Shown: positions 12,052 through 47,676 of the stretch, one piece after another | How positions within the stretch are numbered: position 1 is the stretch's first letter | Layout of the letters: each line of letters opens with the position of its first letter | From: Ionaspis alba | Taxonomy: Eukaryota | Reading direction: 5' to 3' | NCBI GenBank assembly: GCA_964255285.1 | Contig: CAXUUL010000012.1 | Location: 1 to 64,000 of the forward strand | DNA length: 64,000 bases | Notes under the pieces: model-generated | What the model was told of the DNA's origin: nothing | Seen by the model: only the letters and a program-made list of their open reading frames with translations | Databases searched by the model: none | Program-made: the position numbers and the translations under genes

Positions 12052-12151
12052 NNNNNNNNNNNNNNNNNNNNNNNNNNNNNNNNNNNNNNNNNNNNNNNNN
12101 NNNNNNNNNNNNNNNNNNNNNNNNNNNNNNNNNNNNNNNNNNNNNNNNNNN
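12052..12151. other. Assembly gap (100 N)
   Basis: Run of exactly 100 N, which is likely a placeholder; the true size is unknown. Confidence 0.99.
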
Positions 12152-33967: not shown

Positions 33968-35017
33968 ATGAGCGTGTCGTGATACCTGGAATGCCCGTCG
34001 CGGGACTGCGCGTAACAGATACGCCCTAGACAGTATTTTGAGAGCGCCCCTCTGTAGTGGGGTGACAGCCTCAACGATGCTCTGCTCAGTGGTTGTTCAG
34101 CTATCAATGAAGTGTGTATATAGTTGCTAAGATAAGTAGTGTAAGTCCTAATGTTCTCATACTTCGTCCGAGGATGACTCACCAGAACCAGTAAGAGTAC
34201 TGATATGACAGTCGAAGTGGACCGTTGAGAATGACGCAGAAGCTGAAGATCTACGCTTCTCGAATGCTCGTAACAGAGGACGAAGAAGGCAGACAGATTC
34301 CCGTTACTTTCCAGATCTAACAGTAAGCCAGGGATAGCTTGGAGAGAGTATTGGACGTGTGGCAGGGAATAGAGATATATCGTGCGAGCTCTGACCCGCG
34401 CATTATCGTTCTCATGGACAAGGCAGGGATCAAGTAGTAGCCAATCTACGCTAAGCTTTGGGACATCGGTGCCATAGACTGACAACGCCATCGGTTGCCC
34501 GCGATCCTCGCTAAAGCATAGAACTGATAAGGGCTCCCTGGAGGGAGAAGGAATTTACAAATAAAAATAAAAGTTTGAACGGGGCAGGGTTGATAACACT
34601 AATTGCTGAGTCGTGTCATAATACGAAGACAACCGCGTGAGATTCAACTACATAAATTCTGCAATAATACTTGGCCACTGGGACAGTGCAAGATAGTGGG
34701 AATATCATAAGAGTAGTTGCATTTGCTGTTCTATGGACTTCCTACACACATTATTCCATGCAACAAAGCCATCTGCTATCTTCCCATACCCAAGCCTTTC
34801 CATCTCGTCATGCTTGCACGCTGCGTAAACGTCATCCTTAGCCTGTATTGGAGGGTGTGTAGTCAAGTGGTATCCTGTGAACGATATATAAGACCATAGG
34901 AGATGAGATAAGAATCATCGGTGGAAGCTTAGTCGAGTGTTTCCCCCACCAGAGGATGTGATTTCTGGGTTGCGACGGTGCCATCTTTGTCAAGGAGAGA
35001 CGGCCATTGACTCGTAT

Positions 35018-36251
35018 CTAGGTGTGGAAGCTCGTTCCAGTTTGGCCAGCGGTCTCTTTCCGTACTGGACTGAAGTAAGCATGCGCCATAGCTTCTTTCG
35101 CCGTCAAACGCTCCTAGGCCACTGTTAGCAATCTGCGGGTATCCATAGTTCGTCCGAGATCCTCATACCTGATGATCGTAGCGTAGCAATTTATCAAGGA
35201 AATCAATCGCGTCGTTACTGACGAATCTTTGGTTCTCCGTGTTCACAAATCCATGCCAGTTCTTCTTCGGAAATCTCCCCAATATGTCGTCATACTGAGC
35301 ATCAAGCTCGATATCATACTTGTCAAGATATTCGAAGAGGTCATCAGTCCCAAGTACTTTGGCAATCTTGACGAGCTGGTCTGAATTGCTATTGCCATGG
35401 AAGAAGGGCTCTTTTCGGAAGATCATTGAGGCGAACATCGCACCGAGTGACCACATATCCAGAGAGTAGTCGTATTCTTGGAAGTCCACCAGTAACTCGG
35501 GACCCTTGAAGTATCTTGATGCGACCCTGACATTGTACTCGGTCCCTTGGTGATAGAATTCAGCAAGACCCCAGTCAATTAACCGCAACTGAAAACTGTT
35601 AGCAATCAAGTTTTCTCCTCAAGTATCTAGATCCTGACCTTTCTCTTCTCGTGATCTATCATCACATTATGGGGCTTTACATCCCTATGCATAATGCCCT
35701 TGCTGTGGCAGAAGTCTAGAGCCTAAAGTGGATGCATCAGTATCCTCATTTTCGCAATTTCTCGAGACATTCATACCTTGAGAAGCTCGTAGATATAGAA
35801 TCTCACATCGTAATCGACGAATTTCGGGTACAGACTCCGAAAGTCGGTGTTGTTGACGTACTCGAATATCAAGGACGGTGTCTTGCTCTGGCTATCCCGC
35901 ACCACATCTAACAGCGCAACCACGTTTGGCCCACCCGAGAGGTTCTGCAGAATCTTGATTTCTCGCTTTATCTTCTTCTTCTTTACAGGTTTGAGAACTT
36001 TGATGACGCATTTCTGGTAGTTAACGATGTTGATGCCTTCGAAGACCTCCGAGTACTTGCCCCGTCCTGGAGGATTTTGTTAGTGTGAGCAAGATATATT
36101 TGATCGCGCCCTGTGCACACTGTTTCTGAGACTTACCTATCTTCCGCACAACTTCATAGTTCTCGAGCACGCCCCAGGTGATGTTGACGCTATCATAGTC
36201 CCAATAGGCCCTAGGCATCTGCTGGTTGACATCGGCATACACCCGAGCCAT
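35018..36251 (-). CDS. CKA1: Casein kinase II alpha subunit; multi-exon
   Basis: [61 protein letters not shown]; last exon [14 protein letters not shown]. Confidence 0.97.
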
Positions 36252-36638
36252 GCTGTCGATAGCCTCGACAGGCTTTCGTTTGCCTTTGTTGGCGCGCACA
36301 AGTTACAGTATAATAGTATAGCTGTGTCTGATCACGTAGATACGACCGTCACAGTAGATTAAGACTAGTTGAAGTCAGGCCGAATAGCTGATTGGGCAGG
36401 GCAAGCTTTGTAGCGTTAAAGGCAAGAGTGAACCAAAACTATCGCACCGGGTACGTTCACGACGCTTGGACCACGTTCGCCTAGCGTCAGCCACGCGAAC
36501 CACGATCGACGCTGATTGCAGAAGCGTTGGAGCTTCTACTAGCGTGAACAACGATAATAATGCTTGTCTGATAACAAAAAGACACTACTGGTAAGTCGAT
36601 AGTCGTGTAGTTGGAGCGGACACGGAGGAAGGAGAAGG

Positions 36639-37723
36639 ATGTTTTACGACCTCAACGTCCCATGGACATCTAATCACATTGAGCTGCAGCGAACACTGTC
36701 ATTTCTGTCGGAGTGTATGTCACCTTTCAATGTGCACTCCCATAACCGCTGACACGCTTCAGTGGACTACAATGTGGTCGCATTGAGCAATTCGATCACC
36801 GGCAGACTTCCTGCCGACCTTGTGAGCTCCCCAAGTCTTCAATTATCACCACCCGTATTAACCAAATACCCTAGACGAGCCCAATCACGCTCCCTCTGCC
36901 GTTCACAGCTCCACCGAAGCTTCACATCCTCACGCGCCTTACACTCTATCTCTCTGACCCTTCTCAGAACCACCGTCTCTCGGCCCTCGCAGCCAACTAC
37001 TCAATCCTCGCTCTCCGCCCTACGACGGAGAAAGCACTGCTGCTCGCCTGCCAGTCACCCGACTGTGACATCATATCCCTCGACCTGTCCCAACGCTTTC
37101 CATTTCATTTCAAGTACAAGACTCTATCCTCTGCTCTCGCGCGAGGCGCCAAAATCGAAATCTGCTATGCCGCTGGTGTTGGTAACGCAGATGGTGGAAC
37201 GAGCAGGAGAAACCTCATTAGCAATGCCACAAGTCTGATTCGGGCAACCAGGGGCCGAGGAATTATAATATCTAGTGAGGCAAAGAGAGCAATCCTCTGC
37301 CGAGGTCCTTGGGATGTTGTAAATCTAGGAGTTGTCTGGGGTCTGCCGCAAGAGCGCGGTCGAGAAGCGGTTGGTAGAGAGGCTAGGGCTGTGGTCGTAC
37401 AGGCGGAGATGAAGAGAAGAAGCTTTCGAGGGGTCGTGGATGTGATCTATGGCGGGGAAAAACCTGTGTTGCCGGAAAAAGCAGATGCAAAGGAAGAGAA
37501 GTCTGCGGTAGCAATGAAAGGTAAGAGAAAGGCGGATGCGATGGAGAATGGCCGAGGAGAGAAGGTAAAGGTCGAGGAAGAACAGCCTATCTCAAAGAGA
37601 GAGATGAAGAGACGAGCAAAAAGGGCCAGGCTCGAAGCACAAGAGGGCACGGCTACAGATGGGCAGCAGACCAAAGCTTCGTCCGAAGCCGCGAAAGACG
37701 TAACATTACCTGTTTTGCCTTGA
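36639..37723 (+). CDS. RPP1: RNase P/MRP subunit p30; two 5' introns
   Basis: MFYDLNVPW start, ILALRPTTEK, RRNLISNATSLIRATRGRGIIISSEAK and RGPWDVVNL motifs. Confidence 0.9.
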
Positions 37724-38371
37724 AGATCATCACTACCGTTTTGACTGAGTTCGTCGGTCAATCTGTCCACGGAGCAGCGCCTTTACTATCGGCGTAATGA
37801 GCACATCACGCTCTGCAGCTTAAAGCATCCTGTATGATACGCTGCTTTCCAAAACCGGAGCAGCAGCGAGCAAGGTAGAGTATAGGGGACGCAGCTAGCA
37901 GGACGAAACGCTTTGAGTGTGACACAGGTTGCGTCCCCCCTATCTCTAGTGCGAGTCATCGGTCTAGCAATGGTGCTGTGGAAAACTGTGTGACAATCGT
38001 CAGGCCACTGCAAGACGGTCAATCAAAAACCGATGAGACCATATGTTGGGTAGCGGGAAGAGGAAAATTGGTGGACCTCTTGGAGAGATGGCTAGTATAG
38101 CTATGTACATCTCGAATGCTCAAAACAACGAACACCAGCCAACTCCATGTTCCATTTCGGAATGCGCCTAGAGACATCGCTCAAAGAACCATTTGTCCAA
38201 CGAAATCGTGGATTCTATTACAAGTGATTATTTTCCTCCAGAACAGTATCTCGAGTCTCAAGGTCATCTTCCCGCTTGTAATTGGCTCAGTGCCAGCTGA
38301 ACCTTTACGTCCACTTCAAACCTTCCTTGCATCCATGGCTTGCGTGTGGGGACAGCTTCACCGGATGTCTC

Positions 38372-39198
38372 CTAAGACCCTCCGTTATAATCAAATGGCA
38401 CAGTAACAGCACTATGGAGCGAGAAAGTCCTAATGTCGAAAGGGGCATTGGGAGGAGGAGGTGTCGGCGCTGGCGGCTTCGAATCAGGTAACCCAGACGG
38501 CAAAGCAGACGATGAGATTGGTGTTGCGACATTTGGAGCAGGGGGTGGAGGCGGAGGTGAAGGCGGTAGGGGTGGAGGTGGTGTCGCGATCGATGTTGAG
38601 GAAGTTGTGCTGGAAGTAGACCTGGACGCCATCGCTACCGCCATGGTCAAACTGGCAGCCGTTGGAGGCGACGTTACACTCGCGGAGGAGGTCGCGGAGC
38701 TCATTTCGGTAGAATTCGGTGGGGGAGACGAGCTTTGCAATGGCACCACAGTCTGAGTTGGTATGGTTGTTGTGCTGCTTGCTGAAGGCATGTACAAGAT
38801 TGAGAACGAAGCCATTGGGCATTGACACATGCAAGGACCATCGCCTGCCACGGAGCCTGCGACGAAAGGGACCGCTGTTTGAGTGCTGTTATCCGGACTC
38901 GGTAAGAGGATCATAGACGGATCTGCAGCTTGAGGAGGTGGTGGACCTGGGGGGAGAGGCTGCTCGCTGTTAGCAAAGGTTATGGTGTGCTATGTGATCG
39001 GAATAATTGCCATTGATGGGTCGGTCATCGGGGTGCTTTTGTATGTCAGCAATTGCTTTCGTCACAAGGAAGATGGACTTACCCTCTCCCCAGAAGCTCC
39101 CTATGTGGTTTTGAATCTGCCACGACGGCGGCATGGCATGAAAAGAAGAGAAGGGAAATATAGAGCCATAGGCTATTCTGACGATCAAAGCATCGCAT
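38372..39198 (-). CDS. Predicted secreted Pro/Ser/Thr-rich orphan protein; 3 exons
   Basis: Signal-like MRCFDRQNSLWLYISLLFFSCHAAVVA, a GT-AG intron, then a 51-nt GC-AG intron (38960-39010) joining in frame to the 180-aa ORF with CMCQC and poly-Pro tracts. Confidence 0.65.
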
Positions 39199-40671
39199 GG
39201 TAGTGAGAGAGATCATTGATTTGGCCGGCAATGGGGCTGCAGAAAAGGTACGGCAGAAATCGTGGTCTTAGTCTCTGGACGTCCCGAGCGGGTATATGGG
39301 GCGGATCACGCAGCTGGGACGCATGCAGTCTCGTAGAAATTATTGAAAGAGATTGGAGATGGAATATATTCATGTGACAGTATGGAGCATTAGCAGAGAA
39401 GTCGCAAGCTATTCTCGAACTCAAAGTGAAGTAGTTGAGCCAGACACGCTCCTGGAGGTAAAGAAGACATTCTGGTATCAGAAGAGATCATCTTGAAGCC
39501 GTTAGAAGCATTGCAGCCGTTGATCTAGGCTGACATGATCTGCATGAATTTCAGAAAGATCAGACGCCTCATGTTTCATCAGGGCCGAGCGTCAGCAATG
39601 CATCACGTGTACCATATGATCACGGCTATGGGCCGCTACCTTGCAAATGTATTGCATGATCATGTTAAGGTTACCAGTCGACCATGTTGCTGCAACGGTC
39701 GTACTCGCACAGTTGAAATGGAGACCATAGAAGAACCCTTGCAACTCCATGTTGCGCTTGCAACGCGCTTGAAGTGCTTGCCGATGACCCTTAAGCTGAC
39801 TTACGCTTGCCTTCGTGACCCTTGTAGAGGAGCGGATTAATACTGATCCGTAAAACCTTGCCAGAGGGGCTTGAGTCCATAAATTGCGAATCTGCTTAGG
39901 TCGGTTTTTATGTATTTACGATTACAACGCAACGACCAGTGTATATATTGTTGATTCGATTTCGCTGAGAGCGAGATTTGTGGTCATTCGACAGACTTAC
40001 GGAATCATTTGACAATTAAAACATGAGTAATATTGTTTACAAAACCTCGACGTAAATTGACTGGGTTGTAACCCTCAAAAATACGCAAAAGTGTATATAT
40101 GGGAATCCCCGCCTGGCTATGTTAAATTTGCCCAGACCCTCTGGGAGGGTTTACGGCCTTGACCGGGGTCTGAATTTCTGAGGCAAACTTATCAAGGCCA
40201 AAACATTGCTGTCCAATCGCTGTTGGACAAGAAGCTCCCACCAGCCAACAAATTCAGGCTGTTTGAGCAAAACAGAGTCGATCGCGTTCACTGAAGAAGG
40301 TTATGATTCTCACTTCTCAGTCACCATGATGGTCCAGAAATGTAAAAGGTCGCTTTTGATCATCCGCAGGAATTGCTTGTTCACCGGCTGGCGGTTGACT
40401 AGGCGGGCCTCAGTCAAAAGAATGCCAAATTCTGCCACCCGCGTGCCCGATTAGCATTTTCTTTATTTATGTGACACGCTCTTTATCCATGTGGATAGTG
40501 CATCACGATTCCGGCATCTATGCTCGTCTCCGGAATGCAATGTGCTGGGGGAATGCCAAAAAGGGGGCCGTTTGCAACAAAGAAACACAACGAAGCAGAA
40601 ATGCACTTCTCCGCGAGACAATCTCCTCCCTATCCACATCAACAAAATATTCTTGATTCAACTTCCATATC

Positions 40672-42991
40672 ATGCCTCCTATCACCAGATCCAAAGCAGC
40701 GAAGGCTTCTAGCTCTATCTCCACGCCAGAGTTCTCTACCGCCAGATCTGGCAAATCAGAAAGACATCCCAACACCGAGAGCACCCAAAAGAAGTCGATT
40801 CGACAGCTCCCCGTTCCCAGATCTCAAGAAGTAACAGAGCCTTCTCAAACCCCATCTGTTCTGTCAAAGGGTTCGAGGCGAGTGCTTCCCGACAACGCGA
40901 TCGTTCATTGGCCCTGTCAAAGTTGCTCCTGTCTTCAAGGCGTTTTCACTCCACCGACTGAAGGGTGTATATTCTGCGAGCACAATATGGGTGAGCACAC
41001 AATTCCACCTTCGGATGCAGGGTGGGACCCATATTGCGACCACGTGAGTCAAAGAGAAGGACTCGTGACTGCTACGCTCCGACTTGTGCTCGAGAAAGGA
41101 ATGGTAGTCATTCGTGCCACTCCTCAAGTCGGAAAAACGACACTGCTCCTACTGCTAGGTCGTCATATTCGGGATAAGTGTCCCAACTTGGAACCAATCT
41201 GGCTCCAATGGAAAAACGCGGAACAGCGGTCAGGCCTTCCATATCACAAATACCTCGACAATGAAGCAAAGCATTGGCGCCAACTCAATGCTGAATACCG
41301 GCCCCACAACCCAAAAGCAAGGAACATATTTCTCATCGACGAAGCGCAGAATTCCTATACTGACACCGACTTTTGGTCCCGCCAACAGAAAAACAGATTC
41401 ACTAGATCACAATCATTGTTTCTGTTAGTGTGTGTTTATGGGTCGACTACGAATTATTTGGCAGAAGGGTACAAGTACCCTCAGTCTGAGGCCCTTATGG
41501 TTGAGCAGAGCCAAAGGATCGAGTTACGTCCTTCCGTAACGAGTGGATTGTGTATGCAATTCAATCCAAAAGAGACTGAAGAAGTTATCCAAAAATGGGC
41601 GTTCACGAACAAGTACAAGCTCGTGGGTAGTGTGTCCAAGTACATGCACATGGCAACCGATGGTCACCCTGGCATGATTGGATTGCTTCTCAACTCTTTT
41701 GACTCTCACTTCAATCAGGTGAATACTTGATCAATAGTCTTGAATATTGTCTTGCGCTAACCATACTTCGCAGCTGGACAGCGAAGTTCGATCCTCAAGA
41801 GCATGGACACCCGAGCTTTGCCATGCGATCATCGCCAACCAGGCCGGTTTCATGGATCTGCTTGAACGTCGTGGTAGAGGAGTCTGGACGGCGCAAGCCG
41901 AGACTTTCTGCCGGAAGGCTTTGCTGACAAGACACTATGGCGAATTCAAGTTCTCGGACATGATCAGAGTGATGCAGCATGTAGCGACGAAACCTAACGG
42001 CTACACTCATTTCCCAACAGACTTCGATGCATTTGCGTTGTGTCACAAGATGGGATTCCTTCATACAGAACCGTCGGCTGGGCCCGATAAGAACGGGATC
42101 ACTTATGTATTTGCGTCCCCGATCCATCGAAGGTATACAATAATTATCCACAAGCTGATAGTAATGCTAATCGCTATTTTAGAATTGCATACAGGCGCCT
42201 CCTACCAGGTCCCGACCCAGATGCAGGACCTGATAACCGCACGCTTTTGCAGGTATGCCTGAATGCGATCGAAGGGATTAGTCCGTCGGCCATACAAAGT
42301 CGATCCAGCGATCGCTGGAGTGTTCCGGAGGCAACATTCCAGGATGAGATATATCGTTGCCTTCATTGCGAGCTCCAGCATTTACCCATCTTATCCGAGT
42401 ACTCCCATTCCTCGGACGGGAGGGTTGACTTCTATATTTTCGACAAAAAATGGGGTGTCGAAATCCTTCAGTCCGGAAACTATGCACAGATCATGGAGCA
42501 TGCGGTTCGATTCGGACCAGGAGGCAAATACAAAAGATGGAATATCTTAGAGGATTATATCGTTCTCAACTTTTGTCCCAAGTCTAAGCTTCGAAGCTTG
42601 GAGGTTCAAGGTAATCGTCATCTAGTTCACCCAGCTTGCCTTTGGCTAACCTTAGTATGATTGGATGGTAGACAAGGAGCTTCAGGCCCATATTATACAG
42701 GTTGCGATAGATTCTCTCGAACGTACGGCTGAAATATACACCTACGATATGCAGTTGAGAGCCAGCTTCACGTTGGGTGAAGGGCGGTATGGCTCTGGTA
42801 CAGGAGTGGATAACCTCGGGATAGCGATTGGCGAATCAGATGCCTTGAAGTCCAATGAAACCGGTCCTCTGTTTCTAGCATCATATGAGAAGGATTGCGA
42901 GGAAGCTCGTGGTCTTATGGAACTGCTGGAAAGTAGAGTGCCTCGGATGTCGAAACAAGAGAGAGAAGCCGTGTTGGAACTCTTGGGTTGA
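40672..42991 (+). CDS. Cys/His-headed STAND-like P-loop NTPase plus PD-(D/E)xK restriction-endonuclease-fold protein (Crinkler/RHS effector-like); 4 exons
   Basis: Walker A ATPQVGKT, Walker B FLIDEAQ, TDGHPG motif, FASPIHRR, and nuclease EATFQDE...GRVDFYI...WGVEIL...EHAVRF. Introns 41719-41773, 42133-42182 and 42611-42671 keep the frame. Confidence 0.8.
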
Positions 42992-43382
42992 GGGTGTGGT
43001 ATGTACGCGGTTTGCAAAACGTCCGAAATACCCAAACCACAAGCTGGTCGATTATCCACTAAATGTCCGCCTAAATCCATAAGTAAGGAGCGGCTTCCTG
43101 GTTTTTTGAACCTCTTTGGGTTGAGTGTATTGTCACGTAAACGAGATGCTAGCGTAAAGGTTAGATAGAAAGCGCCAAGACTTGAGTCGAACGTGCACTC
43201 GAGTAACTATGAAGTCTGCGACTTCTCCATTTGCACTCACTTGTACCTATTCTGAGCCATGTCTTTGCGTGAGCACACCTCACTACAAATACTCAGCTTC
43301 GTTCGACATTGACTAGATGCTTAGCTAGCGATGAGATCATGGCTATTCAATACCTTCGACCACTGTCCTTGCACTTTCTGTC

Positions 43383-45021
43383 ATGGACACAGCAGCGATC
43401 GAGTGCCAGGTCTGTCTTAGATCTGGCAATAGCCAGCTCCATCTCTACTGCCCAACTTGCGCCCGAAACGCGCTGTACGAACCTCGAGTCCAGCATGCCC
43501 AGGTCTTACTCACTCGAGAGGCCCTTGGGAAAGAGGTAGAGCTGGTCTTGAACGGCGGGAAGAGAGTGGCTGGAACAAGATCTCTTCAGACTTCAGAGAC
43601 TATGAACGGCCATATTTCGAGCCGTATCACTTATGAGCGTGCTGAAGCCGAATGCGCTCACTCGACTGAACGGACCAGGACTGTTTTAAGCCACGTCGAA
43701 GCTTTGAGAACACAAACGAAGTTAATTAAGGACGATATCGCCAAACGAAAAGCCAGCTTGTCTCAGCGACAAAAAGTCCTTACTTCGATCAAGCAAGAGC
43801 TCGTACAGCAGAAAGTCAAGGTTGTCGAGCCACTTCAGAAAGGTTATGGCAATACGGAAAATCGTTGGAACGCGCTCCATAACAAGAGTGCTGAGTCTCG
43901 TATTTTCCTGTGCCGTGAAGCAGCGAGACTTTACGGACTGCAACAACGCAAACGCAAGAAAGGGGTTCCTGGTCGAGATAGCTATCTCATCGGTGGTGTA
44001 CCAATAGTCGATCTCCGAGACATCAATAGTAAGACGCCCTCGTGTCGAGCTTATCTTGCCTCTAATATCTCTTCGGCTAACATATTACCAACTAGCCGCG
44101 ACTCCTGTCCAGATTACAGTTTCAATCACCTATCTCGCCCACCTCCTCCACTTGACATCGCACTACCTCTCCCTCCGTATGCCTGCAGAGATAATACTCC
44201 CGTCAACCAACAATCCGCATGCTCAGATCTTTTCTCCGCTGTCCTCCTATAACTTCTCTACCCTACCCTCACCCAGCTCCAAGTCCTTCCTCTCGACCAG
44301 ATTCCCCACCTCATCGACACCACCAACTACCAAGACTCCTCCTCGACCTCGACCTCTACACCTCGACAAACCCCTGCAAGCGCTCGCGACCGAAGACGCT
44401 ATTGCCTACTCCCTCTTCGTGGACGGCATAACTCTGCTGGCATGGGATGTCGCCTGGGTATGCAAAACACAAGGACTAGACATAGGCGGTAAATCCTGGG
44501 AAGACGTCTGCGCCATGGGTCGGAATATCTGGCTGCTCCTAGTCGCGCCGCCACAAGCTGCCATATCCCGCGGCCTGATTCCTGACAAATCTGCTCCAGA
44601 TTCCCGAAATGGCACACCTACCAAGCCTGATACAACAACCGTGAAAGCTCTCGACCCATATCCTACCAAAAAGGTTGTGGAAGGAGCTGATGCCAAAGAG
44701 CATGTTCGACCTAGTCATTTCTCGCATGGGACGAATCACTCTTTCCTCGCCGCTGCCGAAGGGGAAGCTTTCATGCGGAGCTGGAAGTTGGCGAGTCCGG
44801 TGCGAGTTATTGAGAAGGTGAAGGCAGCATTGGCGAGCGAGCGGATGGGAGCTGAATGGGAGATGCTGGAGGACAGGGAGTGGGCCGACGAGGGAAAAGA
44901 AGACGACGGAGCTAGGACTGTGGAGGGGGACGAGAAGGTCAATCAAGGGGAGGCAAATACTGTGGGAGAGAAGGGGAGAAGTGGTTGGATGAAGGTTAAG
45001 AACCGGGGCGGGGAGAGCTGA
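43383..45021 (+). CDS. Atg14/UVRAG-family autophagy PI3K complex subunit; one intron
   Basis: N-terminal CQVC...CPTC zinc motif, long coiled coil, RIFLCREAARLYGL, LAHLLHLTSHYLSLRMPAEI and LLAWDVAWVC. Confidence 0.8.
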
Positions 45022-45716
45022 GAGTGGTCCTGGATCTGGCCGTGCTTTATCTTACAATCATATGGGACGGAATGGCTGTTGTTTGCATAGCATCGGTGCT
45101 GGGGATTGGAATACTCGTGGCACTCATCCTCTTCGGCAAGCATCCGGGCGGCATAGAACTTTGTATCAATACGACTTGATCATGAAGAAATGCTTCGATG
45201 AACCTGGTGCCTGGGACTAGATTTCTTCCTTTACGGGACTTCTTATCCATTCCTGGATCTAACAAGTTTCTCTGAGCTCGATGCACACTCAGACGTATAA
45301 CTGTGGATCGAAAGTAGAGAACTTCGAATGTCTTCAGAACCAGCAAAAGTCAAAGATCAAATGCTATTTGCATTTCAAGAAACCATAGTTTTGTTTGAAG
45401 GGCATTTCCAAACCCACTAAAAAGGAGATTAAAAGGACACTAATTTTCCGAGCGGGTTGCGCGATTCGCAGCTAAAACACACTCGATAAGTACGCGGAAT
45501 TCGGACACAACCGAGGACCGTTGATTGCGATCGCAGATCCACGACGTCATCAACGACTCTTGAAGTTTGACAGCTCGGTGTTGCAGGGAGTTTGGCCCAA
45601 GGGCGGTATATCCGCTGGTCTTTTCTATATGCTACTCTTCAACTTGCCCATTTCCCACTACTCGAGCTTTTCAGGCCTCTGGACGACACTGACAACCATC
45701 TGCGCACTGGGAAATC

Positions 45717-46856
45717 ATGGCAGAAGTCCACGCGCTCGACGACTACTACCTCGCCATCTCCCTCCTGATCACAATCGCCTATCAGCTGTTCTTCTTCTCT
45801 ATAGCCTATTCGCTCAAGTTTGACAAGCTCACTGGTAATGTGACTGCCAGAATCCATATCGCAAGGCTAATAAACGGCTCCAGACTTTGCGGGGGGTACC
45901 AACTTCGTCGTCCTAGCTATTATCACCCTTGCTTTCTCAGGCCACCATCATGCACGACAGATTATTGCCTCGATATTTATTATGCTGTGGGGAGCCCGAC
46001 TCTCTGGCTTCCTGCTGTTCCGCATCATCAAGACGGGCAAGGACGACCGCTTCAATGACAAGCGCGACAAATTCTTTCCATTTCTTGGATTCTGGGTCTT
46101 CCAGATGATCTGGGTGTGGACGGTATCATTACCTGTTACGATCTTGAATTCGCCAAATGTCACAAAATATCCACAACCAGATTTTGGTACAGGAAGGGAT
46201 ATTGCTGGTGTGATATTCTTCGCCATTGGATTCATCTTGGAAAGTGTATCCGACATCCAGAAATACATCTTTAGGAGCAAGCCGGAGAATAAGGGCAGAG
46301 TCTGCGATGTTGGGTTCTTCACTTGGTCGAGGCATCCCAACTATTTCGGGGAGATCATCATTCAGTTTGGTATTTCAACGGCTTGTCCGACCAGTCAGTC
46401 AAGCAGTACTGACTCTTATCAGGAATCTTCATGATTGCTGTATCACCAGCTGCATACGGCTATGTCACAGGTGGAGCTTATAGCGCTCTTTACGCCTCAA
46501 TACTAGGAGCTTTCTTCCTGACAACTCTTCTAATGTTCGTCTCGGGATTAACGCTACAAGAACGGCCAGGCGCCAAGAAGAGATACGAAAGTGGCAATCA
46601 CTGGGAGTCTTTCTCGAAATACTCAAAACGAACAAGCATCCTTATACCATTTCCACCACAATTGTATGAGCGTATGCCTACTATCTTGAAGAGGACAATT
46701 TTCCTGGAATTCCCTATATATGTCTTCGATCCTGCGAAGCATGCTGATCAGAGCAAAGTGAGAGAGCGGGAGGCCGAGGAAGGAAGTCGTAATAGGCAAG
46801 AGAGCGAGAGACATAGTGGGGATCAGCTTGTTAATGGGCAGACCGGGTCGAGCTGA
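45717..46856 (+). CDS. DUF1295 / steroid 5-alpha-reductase-like membrane protein; two introns
   Basis: FDKLTDFAGG, WGARLSGFLLFRI...DDRF, WSRHPNYFGE and LLMFVSGL motifs; hydrophobic helices. Confidence 0.88.
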
Positions 46857-47676
46857 GAAGGCCATTATTTTCGTTCAATGGTTGCGGGTATTCAGCGTGG
46901 CGTCAAGGAACCAGATAGAGAAAATGACTGTCTTAAAAAAACCCCTAGTAAATAACGCCGCAGAGTCTAGATAATGCATGTTGTCACCACCGTTGTGACC
47001 TCGATGCGAGAGGTAGACACTGAGGCTGTTGTACAGAATGAATGGTAGGTAATAGGAGGTTTTTAGAATTTACTAGCATAGCTGTTGTTTCGCCAGATAA
47101 AGCGCACTATTCCCAAGACCGTGAAGACCAATGCTGTGCTGTTGATTTTGCTGTTGATCTGCGAAGGCATTCAAGTGGCTGGTGATTTCCAAATGTGGCT
47201 GGCATACTGAGAAACAAGCTCAAACTCGCGATCTTAGCGTGCGGCTCGCGGCTCCAGGGATTTTGATATCACCGCGCTTCTTTTCAATATCAAACATTCA
47301 ACGGCGTATTGACAATAGCTTTGACCTTACAGCTTGCGCAGCATACGGGACAAGGTGAAGAGCAGCAAAGTTGATAGGGTTCATCCTTCTGGCTTCTCTA
47401 GGCTGTGTTGTCCCATACAGTCGATTCCTGGTGAGCCCAGGGACCTCGACCTTGCTGCTCTGTGCTTCCTCTGACTTGACGCCTTGCTAATGATAGCCTT
47501 GTAGCTAGCCAGCGGCCTCGAGAGTGGGTATGCTACGAACATTAAGTCTACCTCATTCGCTTTCGACTTGAAGAGGTTCTCGTGGCAGACCAGAGGTGGA
47601 GCAAACCTACCTAGCAAACACGTCGCCTCATTCCACGACTTGAGCTGCTTCCTCTACTTCTATCAATCCAGTCATC

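Follow-up and report, generated by a model that had tools for sequence, protein, structure and literature searches.

The primary definition of the Crinkler/RHS-type (CR) modules is reportedly that of Zhang et al. 2016. In the available parts of PMC5289972 and PMC11064341, the combination of a nucleoside triphosphatase (NTPase), a helix-turn-helix (HTH) region and a restriction endonuclease (REase) domain is the commonest Crinkler/CR payload, and the NTPase is proposed to regulate the nuclease. Here, we describe a gene at positions 40672-42991 (+ strand) of a stretch of 64,000 nucleotides, hereafter the window (positions 1 to 64,000 of contig CAXUUL010000012.1, assembly GCA_964255285.1, of Ionaspis alba), in which this module appears as an intact, intron-bearing, single-copy resident ascomycete gene with a different head. 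In the reading that we favor, with a probability of about 0.6, the product is an intracellular, probably nuclear, NTP-switch nuclease that belongs to a large fungal family with a CR-type core. The identity and architecture of the protein can be stated with high confidence, and the control of the nuclease by the switch is about an even bet. The initial annotation had singled out this locus as the best candidate for an undescribed system, which is overstated, given that this module type was catalogued in 2016 according to the available part of PMC5289972.

The gene consists of four exons (40672-41718, 41774-42132, 42183-42610 and 42672-42991) separated by introns of 55, 50 and 61 nucleotides, all three with GT-AG boundaries. 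The spliced coding sequence of 2154 nucleotides encodes 717 amino acids followed by a stop codon and contains no internal stop. Residues 1-717 of the product align with residues 1-724 of a 726-amino-acid protein from Circinaria calcarea (P0001) at 68.4% identity, and the identity to an Endocarpon pusillum protein (P0002) is 60.6%. Thus, the four-exon model is right, and the gene is no chance open reading frame (ORF), in accord with the intact four-exon gene of the initial annotation. The sequence motifs quoted there (Walker A, Walker B, GHPG and the nuclease set) were all found as well and are invariant or at least 90% conserved in a 23-sequence alignment of the close subfamily (A1). A tblastn search of the 64-kb window revealed no second copy of the gene.

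All features of the gene described here are on the + strand. The evidence on the full-length fold comes from an AlphaFold model of the Circinaria protein P0001, a 68%-identical stand-in, that was built with A1 (mean predicted local distance difference test score (pLDDT) 68.1) and was compared with a VIA-align target set of 48,161 chains. In this model, an alpha/beta NTPase (~128-300) and a helical lid with GHPG are followed by a helical and winged-helix region extending to ~475; a further alpha/beta domain covers 489-645, and beyond it lie a disordered segment and helices at the end of the chain. The window protein contains, in the same order, a P-loop NTPase with a helical lid (residues 128-350; 41053-41776), recognized by its invariant motifs and by the fold matches, and a helical and winged-helix region (residues 351-478; 41777-42210) that ends in the motif SPIHRR and is delineated by model residues 351-474 and by the alignments with 2qen and 2fna. 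The NTPase motifs are ATPQVGKT (Walker A; residues 149-156, 41116-41139), FLIDEAQ (Walker B; residues 220-226, 41329-41349) and GHPG (residues 331-334, 41662-41673).

The best VIA-align match of the model is 2qen (PAB2304; Z 17.5, root-mean-square deviation (rmsd) 3.8, 281 residues aligned within model residues 112-472), followed by 2fna (SSO1545; Z 16.0), which aligns over the same residues 112-472. The next structures of note are nucleotide-binding leucine-rich repeat (NLR) proteins and their kin, namely, the wheat resistosome (Z 15.0), an Arabidopsis TIR-NLR (13.5), NAIP/NLRC4 (12.9) and CED-4 (10.8). Lower rows include ORC2/Cdc6 (10.7 and 10.6), TnsC (10.4 and 9.6), Avs5 (10.0 and 9.8) and MuB (9.5), and ordinary AAA+ proteins score about 10. 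Foldseek with the same model returned RFC, ORC/Cdc6, DnaA, CED-4 and 2qen, with E-values from 1.5e-6 to 6e-5. Among Pfam families, AAA_14, nSTAND3 and AAA_22 match the NTPase region, all below threshold; nSTAND3 is likewise sub-threshold in 12 of the 23 close relatives (best E 0.0012) and exceeds the Pfam cut-off in four members of the wider family (P0077, P0172, P0166 and P0108). A search of PDB sequence profiles gave P-loop-level or chance matches only. Together, the matches of the predicted structure support the assignment of residues 128-478 to a unit of the STAND type (signal transduction ATPases with numerous domains), with nucleotide-binding, helical and winged-helix parts and with GHPG as the GxP motif, which the initial annotation had likewise called STAND-type.

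In the SPIHRR motif, H466, R467 and R468 (numbered as in P0001) vary little or not at all. The histidine, which is conserved in at least 90% of the A1 sequences, is aligned by hhalign with a conserved histidine of the wider family. In the window protein, this is His 467 (42119-42186, an interval that spans intron 2). Located just past the winged helix, this residue is a candidate MHD-type histidine. The STAND assignment with an MHD-like histidine is possibly new.

The C-terminal part of the core (residues 486-648; 42232-42781) was modeled separately from exon 3 of the window gene (142 amino acids; alignment A2; mean pLDDT 72.1). The model contains a helix (49-64), three strands (69-74, 80-85 and 88-96), another helix (100-110) and a further strand (124-130), which is the order of the PD-(D/E)xK core. 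Against the same 48,161 chains, six VIA-align rows reach Z of at least 5 and none reaches 8, a range in which scores can reflect a common arrangement: OkrAI (6.2), BamHI (6.2), BstYI (6.1), Rep15 (5.9), BglII (5.7) and EcoRV (5.4), five of the six being type II restriction enzymes. Further rows, below Z 5, are Card1, CidB, Cap4, CinB, SwaI, NucS, AF1548, NgoMIV, LlaBIII, SfiI, Bax1 and Can2; in a second VIA-align comparison, BamHI ranked first (Z 6.4) and 35 chains scored 5 or more. Because the Z scores alone are too low, the fold call rests on the uniform list of REase-fold proteins. The weak Foldseek rows for the exon-3 model include CinB/CidB, SwaI, BamHI and EcoRV.

In the language-model Atlas, the closest clusters to residues 480-650 of P0001 are unnamed fungal ones (0.94-0.97), and the closest named clusters are PDDEXK_3, DUF8371 and PDDEXK_9 (0.88-0.91). 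Weak hidden Markov model matches to Pfam RE_HaeII (E 0.073) and PADLOC REase_II (E 0.0057) cover the stretch from the first helix to strand 2; PADLOC otherwise contributed mad8, at 9.3e-7 on the P-loop of a distant relative, and no convincing model match. These models and matches support an REase (PD-(D/E)xK-like) fold of the C-terminal domain. The initial annotation had staked its proposal on this fold, and restriction enzymes indeed top the list, though at middling Z scores of 5.4-6.4.

The motifs of this domain are the PEATFQDEIY helix (residues 517-526, 42322-42357), D551 of VDF (42427-42429), E562 to Q565 of VEILQ (42460-42471) and HAVRF (residues 575-579, 42499-42513). They include a conserved acidic set, placed as a PD-(D/E)xK site would require: the glutamate on the first helix, D551 at the start of strand 2 and E562 in strand 3. 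D551 and E562 are invariant, and three residues after E562 comes Q565, which is an arginine in the wider family, so that the strand-3 motif reads E-I-L-Q in the close subfamily as opposed to E-L-L-R in the wider one. The catalytic-type residues are also visible in each row of a 37-row alignment of the 36 close relatives and the window protein.

The residue two positions after the strand-3 glutamate, where the canonical lysine would be expected, is leucine in all rows shown. This would fit a nuclease-dead scaffold, in which the REase-like domain binds nucleic acid or partners of a STAND switch that signals in some other way, and several structural neighbors use the fold in a non-catalytic or regulatory way, such as the nuclease-like domains of CidB. 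Conversely, the acidic residues expected to bind metal (the helix glutamate, D551 and E562) and the Q/R position show little or no variation in the close subfamily and in the wider family; such conservation is not expected after loss of catalysis. Moreover, BamHI and BglII, among the top structural neighbors, also lack the canonical lysine, with glutamate and glutamine, respectively, in its place. Hence we regard a dead scaffold as rather unlikely, and nuclease catalysis, judged by these residues, as plausible but not assured.

To delineate the family to which this core belongs, a HMMER profile search with A2 was run against 1.84 billion cluster representatives and yielded 1660, 713 and 141 of them at E ≤ 1e-3, 1e-10 and 1e-30, respectively, the best 150 of the 1660 matches being visible. 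Outside the close subfamily, profile positions ~135-610, which take in the NTPase, the winged helix and the nuclease, are matched by many proteins of 500-680 amino acids. Source names are available for 18 of the 20 clusters examined, all of them fungal, and the other two are nameless; all 18 named clusters are labeled 'hypothetical protein' or carry a generic domain label. Both Basidiomycota (Serendipita, Tulasnella, Rickenella, Tricholoma, Paramarasmius, Botryobasidium and Steccherinum) and Ascomycota (Aspergillus, Paecilomyces, Tirmania, Kalaharituber, Ascobolus and Trichoglossum) are represented. The family has no curated model, and searches for a published study, by the locus tag of a relative and by Crinkler, Ascomycota and restriction endonuclease combined, found none. 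Some members of the wider family are fused to additional modules: P0077 (Botryobasidium botryosum, 1143 amino acids) has the core at 117-596 and, behind it, another STAND-type P-loop, where NPHP3_N and AAA_16 match at 682-728, and P0174 (Steccherinum ochraceum, 914 amino acids) bears the UniRef name of an AB hydrolase-1 domain protein.

The link to Crinklers comes from this wider family. The Crinkler N-terminal domain PF20147 was found at E ≤ 0.001 in 5 of the 42 wider-family proteins aligned in A3, in two of them above the cut-off of 24.6 bits (P0151, 57.0; P0166, 54.7) and in P0120, P0146 and P0162 at 20-23.5 bits; precomputed annotation places the same domain in P0193 (Serendipita vermifera) and P0195 (Amanita muscaria). 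P0151 and P0166 match the profile at positions ~136-612 with E-values of 1.5e-33 and 2.2e-31. When A1 and A3 were compared by hhalign, they aligned over 512 columns (probability 100%, E 1.3e-79, ~23% column identity), beginning ahead of Walker A and ending where the nuclease domain ends; the D, E, H..RF and DYI.L.F motifs line up. These alignments support the homology of the window core to the core that stands behind Crinkler heads in other fungi. At E ≤ 1, PF20147 is absent from window exon 1 and from all 23 close relatives; strictly speaking, the protein therefore does not qualify as a Crinkler protein. The initial annotation is thus supported as to the Crinkler/RHS-like core. No RHSP-named family is among the Pfam matches at E ≤ 1 for window exon 1 and the 23 relatives, and a further search with A3 for an oomycete link returned only more fungal and unnamed proteins.

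The N-terminal portion of the window protein is of a different kind. Residues 1-76 (40672-40899) form a basic, S/P/T-rich segment that, from its composition and the stand-in pLDDT, is probably disordered: S, P, T, K and R abound in the first 80 amino acids, where 13 basic residues stand against 6 acidic ones, and residues 1-69 of the P0001 model have pLDDT below 50. This segment possibly targets the protein to the nucleus. There is no signal peptide, as previously noted, the longest hydrophobic run within the first 40 amino acids being 2 residues.

The segment is followed by a Cys/His cluster (residues 78-125; 40903-41046) of the pattern C-x2-C-x-C ... C-x2-C-x-H-x4-H ... C, in columns that are conserved across the close subfamily; the stand-in model has short strands in this region. 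The strict pattern is present in 43 of the 203 collected sequences, essentially, the close subfamily and one Tirmania protein. The cluster has no match in Pfam and no usable one in the Atlas, and aligns weakly, in a zinc-ribbon-type manner, with eS31 in PDB sequence profiles (E 0.38). We consider it a putative zinc-binding, zinc-ribbon-like head that would stand in the place of the Crinkler domain. The occurrence of such a head in this Pezizomycotina subfamily, in which lichen fungi and Sclerotiniaceae are prominent, is possibly new. At the other end of the protein, the tail (residues 649-717; 42782-42988), delineated from the stand-in model, A1 conservation and composition, is variable and acidic, with 13 acidic vs 7 basic residues, and weakly conserved in A1; in the P0001 model, pLDDT is low at 647-679 and helices occupy 673-725.

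The Crinkler connection raises the possibility that the protein is a delivered effector akin to the oomycete Crinklers, one that would be exported without a classical signal peptide, enter the nucleus of a partner or host, such as a lichen photobiont or a plant, and damage or bind DNA there. The homology of the core to Crinkler-headed fungal proteins is compatible with this scenario, as are the basic N-terminus and the relatives that, by source name, come from lichen-forming fungi, plant-associated Sclerotiniaceae and Dothideomycetes. The available part of PMC5289972 reports, in the same vein, that CRN (Crinkler) proteins accumulate in host nuclei and assigns cell death to the REase domain. 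The translocation head PF20147, however, is missing from the window protein and from all 23 close relatives, and a signal peptide is missing as well, which leaves export of this protein unlikely.

The close subfamily comprises 36 proteins in a collection of 5.8 billion, none of them informatively named. Exon 1, searched among longer proteins, matched 23 of 2327 candidates, and the C-terminal region of P0001 matched 23 of 387, of which 13 were new. By name, the sources include lichen-forming fungi (Circinaria, Endocarpon, Pyrenula, Trypethelium, Bathelium and Bogoriella), Sclerotiniaceae (Botrytis and Sclerotinia) and Dothideomycetes (Massariosphaeria, Macrophomina, Lophiotrema, Melanomma, Polyplosphaeria, Lineolata and Mytilinidion). 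The relatives are thereby scattered over Lecanoromycetes, Eurotiomycetes, Leotiomycetes and Dothideomycetes, all within Pezizomycotina; the class was looked up for Circinaria, Endocarpon and Pyrenula, and the other genera presumably belong to the classes given here. Several genomes encode paralogs: five in Massariosphaeria phaeospora, four in Pyrenula sp. and two each in Sclerotinia trifoliorum and Polyplosphaeria fusca. P0004 and P0030 of S. sclerotiorum, which are separated by zero branch length, are two models of one gene.

A quick IQ-TREE phylogeny of 42 rows (the window protein, its 36 relatives and 5 wider-family outgroup sequences), with SH-aLRT values as the only support measure, places the window protein in a clade with the Circinaria and Endocarpon sequences and the unnamed P0024 (support 100). 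The Pyrenula paralogs are spread over three clades and those of Massariosphaeria over two, and classes are mixed. The nearest relatives of the window protein, at 61-68% identity, span two classes, Lecanoromycetes (Circinaria) and Eurotiomycetes (Endocarpon), and paralogs from Pyrenula, another member of Eurotiomycetes, are nested among Dothideomycetes sequences. The mixing of classes could be due to old paralogy combined with loss or to transfer between fungi.

With few, scattered and unnamed relatives and with paralogs in different clades, this is therefore a patchy family and no universal ortholog; judging by its homologs, the gene is not a housekeeping ortholog. This distribution also bears on the notion of a housekeeping factor of DNA metabolism, in which an ORC/Cdc6- or clamp-loader-like ATPase would be joined to a repair nuclease and conserved along with its neighbors. 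The gene does have housekeeping neighbors, is single-copy here, and has RFC, ORC/Cdc6 and DnaA as the top Foldseek rows of the stand-in. Yet a mere 36 close relatives, scattered and with lineage-specific paralogs, are hard to reconcile with such a factor; furthermore, no curated family scores above its cut-off, and the STAND and NLR folds outscore the replication factors. We consider this explanation highly improbable. The initial annotation had named a universal single-copy housekeeping ortholog as an outcome that would undo its proposal; the pattern observed is a different one.

The immediate neighbors are, as the initial annotation had it, conserved genes: RNase P p30 upstream (36875-37723, +) and ATG14 downstream (43335-45021, +), with LeuRS, a protein kinase, DUF1295 and TFIIS genes farther away. 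In the sequencing run X1, which contains the stretch in full, a single 10.8-kb contig spans 37882-47000 without a difference, at a depth of 120.5 vs 131 for the adjoining contig, and this run contains no other piece with at least 80% identity over the gene. No contig that bridges the locus without the gene was found over 35000-47000 in runs X1-X3, where the parts without cover are uninformative. Over this interval, the source organism is present in X1 and, thinly, in X2, along with short conserved pieces of other fungi; the runs look like mixed (lichen-type) samples. In X2, the source organism is represented by identical short contigs at a depth of 3-5, alongside a further fungus at the higher depth of 18-40, whose matches are confined to conserved stretches of the kinase, ATG14 and DUF1295 genes. 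Upstream of the gene, on about 70 bases at 39908-39977, X1 has one more short contig, whose loose ends are AT-rich and unrelated; it lifts the summed bin depth to 187 vs ~120 and could represent a short dispersed repeat or come from another organism.

A metagenome scan detected two loci in one sample, one of which (L001) encodes a homolog with 42% identity that is not located beside RNase P p30 or ATG14. About 0.8 kb upstream of this homolog, in a transposon-rich setting that contrasts with the window, is an ORF (L001:3306-4091) with HTH_23 and HTH_Tnp_Tc3_2 domains of the Tc1/mariner type. The L001 neighborhood differs, and therefore the position of the gene is not conserved across the family. 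In a scan of prokaryote genomes, the sole full-core match was L003:517-2272, on a 3.4-kb contig of a Sediminibacterium metagenome-assembled genome with ~50% GC, and two Psychroflexus matches were confined to the P-loop region. The L003 product is 35% identical to P0151 over residues 175-634, and the gene is split over three frames; in view of this split and the GC content, we rejected it as a bacterial homolog and consider it probably mis-binned fungal DNA or a pseudogene.

Could the gene be a mobile element protein, or a recently tamed one, in which an ATPase is paired with an REase-fold protein as in TnsC/TnsA or MuB? A transposon origin of CR modules is reportedly indicated by the title of Zhang et al. 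2016. A section of PMC5289972, 'From Transposons to Toxins', likewise describes these modules, in its available part, as transposon-derived. TnsC (Z 10.4 and 9.6) and MuB (9.5) are among the fold matches, the family is patchy and multi-copy, and the homolog at L001 lies beside the Tc1/mariner-type ORF. At the locus itself, however, the longest terminal inverted or direct repeat pairs within 37700-43500 are at most 24 nucleotides long and 75-88% matched, none of them bracketing the gene; no transposase or integrase is encoded by the neighboring genes; and the gene has three spliceosomal introns. The single contig in X1, with a depth even with the flanks, and the STAND matches far above those to TnsC and MuB point the same way, and a mobile element seems quite improbable.

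Elsewhere around the gene, the Rfam and tRNA scans of 36000-46000 came back empty. Between RNase P p30 and the gene, an ORF of 205 amino acids on the opposite strand (38372-38989, -) has a very high content of Pro, Ser and Thr, including poly-Pro runs, and no Pfam match; it may encode a low-complexity protein, secreted or of the wall, or may not be a gene. The window also includes an assembly gap (100 N at 12052-12151), distant from the Crinkler-type gene.

Under the favored reading of the protein as an NTP-switch nuclease, the resting NTPase would hold ADP, and the SPIHRR histidine would act as its MHD-type counterpart does in NLRs. The Cys/His head, the winged helix or the tail would sense a trigger, possibly a nucleic acid, that induces nucleotide exchange and self-association. 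Self-association would pair the nuclease domains, and the paired domains would then cleave DNA in the fungus's own nucleus or cytoplasm. Such a mechanism would parallel both the bacterial STAND-nuclease defense proteins and the proposal made for CR modules. A role in conflict is likely, be it defense against invading genetic elements, non-self killing or the activity of a tamed selfish module, and a housekeeping role is unlikely. The initial annotation had put forward similar roles for an NTP-gated nuclease.

Going further, and only tentatively, the fungal Crinkler-type core in general might primarily be a cell-autonomous receptor for immunity or non-self killing, rather than an exported effector, and a eukaryotic counterpart of the bacterial STAND-nuclease defense. 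What is sensed, or the destination of the protein, would depend on an exchangeable head, either the Cys/His zinc module or the Crinkler ubiquitin-like domain, and STAND assembly would unleash the lysine-less restriction-type nuclease on DNA. If this is the case, the family of 1660 representatives would constitute a large unrecognized branch of fungal innate immunity, one without the repeat sensors that usually serve to detect fungal NLRs. Provided that the STAND-switch reading is true, Botrytis and Sclerotinia would offer a tractable fungal entry to the NTP-switch control of a eukaryotic restriction-type nuclease, as well as a view of the exchange of modules between effector payloads and endogenous conflict genes. 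Should this be merely one more uncharacterized paralog family, the value of the analysis would be limited to better annotation.

Several observations weigh against the interpretation of the window protein as an NTP-switch nuclease. The STAND fold evidence comes from the 68%-identical P0001 and not from the window protein itself, and the sensor repeats typical of most STAND and NLR proteins (TPR, WD40, LRR and others) are not in evidence, with no Pfam repeat family detected; instead, the winged helix is followed by the nuclease-fold domain and a short tail. The exon-3 model (mean pLDDT 72) does not include three strands that are encoded by exon 4, its best Z is 6.2-6.4, where models without a true match typically peak at 7-8 with this tool, and Foldseek retrieved nothing for it at E ≤ 0.001. 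To this are added the leucine in place of the canonical lysine and the absence of PF20147 from the close subfamily, both described above. No oomycete or trypanosome relatives are among the best 150 of the 1660 profile matches, which is a weak test. A single copy amid housekeeping genes is atypical of fast-evolving conflict loci, and both the nuclease activity and the role of the protein are predictions.

Among known systems, the window protein shares with the STAND NTPases (2qen, 2fna and the NLR units) the nucleotide-binding, helical and winged-helix unit, the GxP-type GHPG motif and, as a candidate MHD-type residue, the conserved histidine past the winged helix. It differs from them in having a nuclease in place of a C-terminal repeat sensor, and nSTAND3 is detected only below threshold in the close subfamily. 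The Avs-type STAND proteins of bacterial defense offer a functional analogy, in that assembly of a STAND switch activates the effector coupled to it. In some Avs proteins, the effector has the REase fold; it is located at the N-terminus in Avs, where phage proteins are bound by a large sensor at the C-terminus, whereas the window protein has the nuclease at the C-terminus and no such sensor. BamHI, OkrAI, BstYI and BglII are the best structural neighbors of the nuclease domain (Z 5.7-6.4, 106-114 residues aligned, rmsd 3.6-4.3). The identity to these enzymes is 8-15%, the sole sequence-level signal being the weak HaeII-type match, and they are bacterial stand-alone dimers that are not fused to an NTPase.

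The window protein is also close to the Crinkler-type proteins of fungi and to CR modules in general. P0151 (Tricholoma furcatifolium), P0166 and P0193 (Serendipita vermifera), and P0195 (Amanita muscaria), all annotated as 'hypothetical protein', are homologous to the window protein across the whole core and differ from it in their Crinkler N-terminus (PF20147). Compared with CR modules, the window protein lacks the Crinkler ubiquitin-like head (LxLFLAK-type) and has the Cys/His cluster instead, and it is the product of an endogenous, single-copy ascomycete gene located amid housekeeping genes. It nevertheless has in common with these modules the domain order, from P-loop NTPase through the HTH region to the REase fold, the lack of a signal peptide and the proposed logic by which the NTPase would regulate the nuclease.

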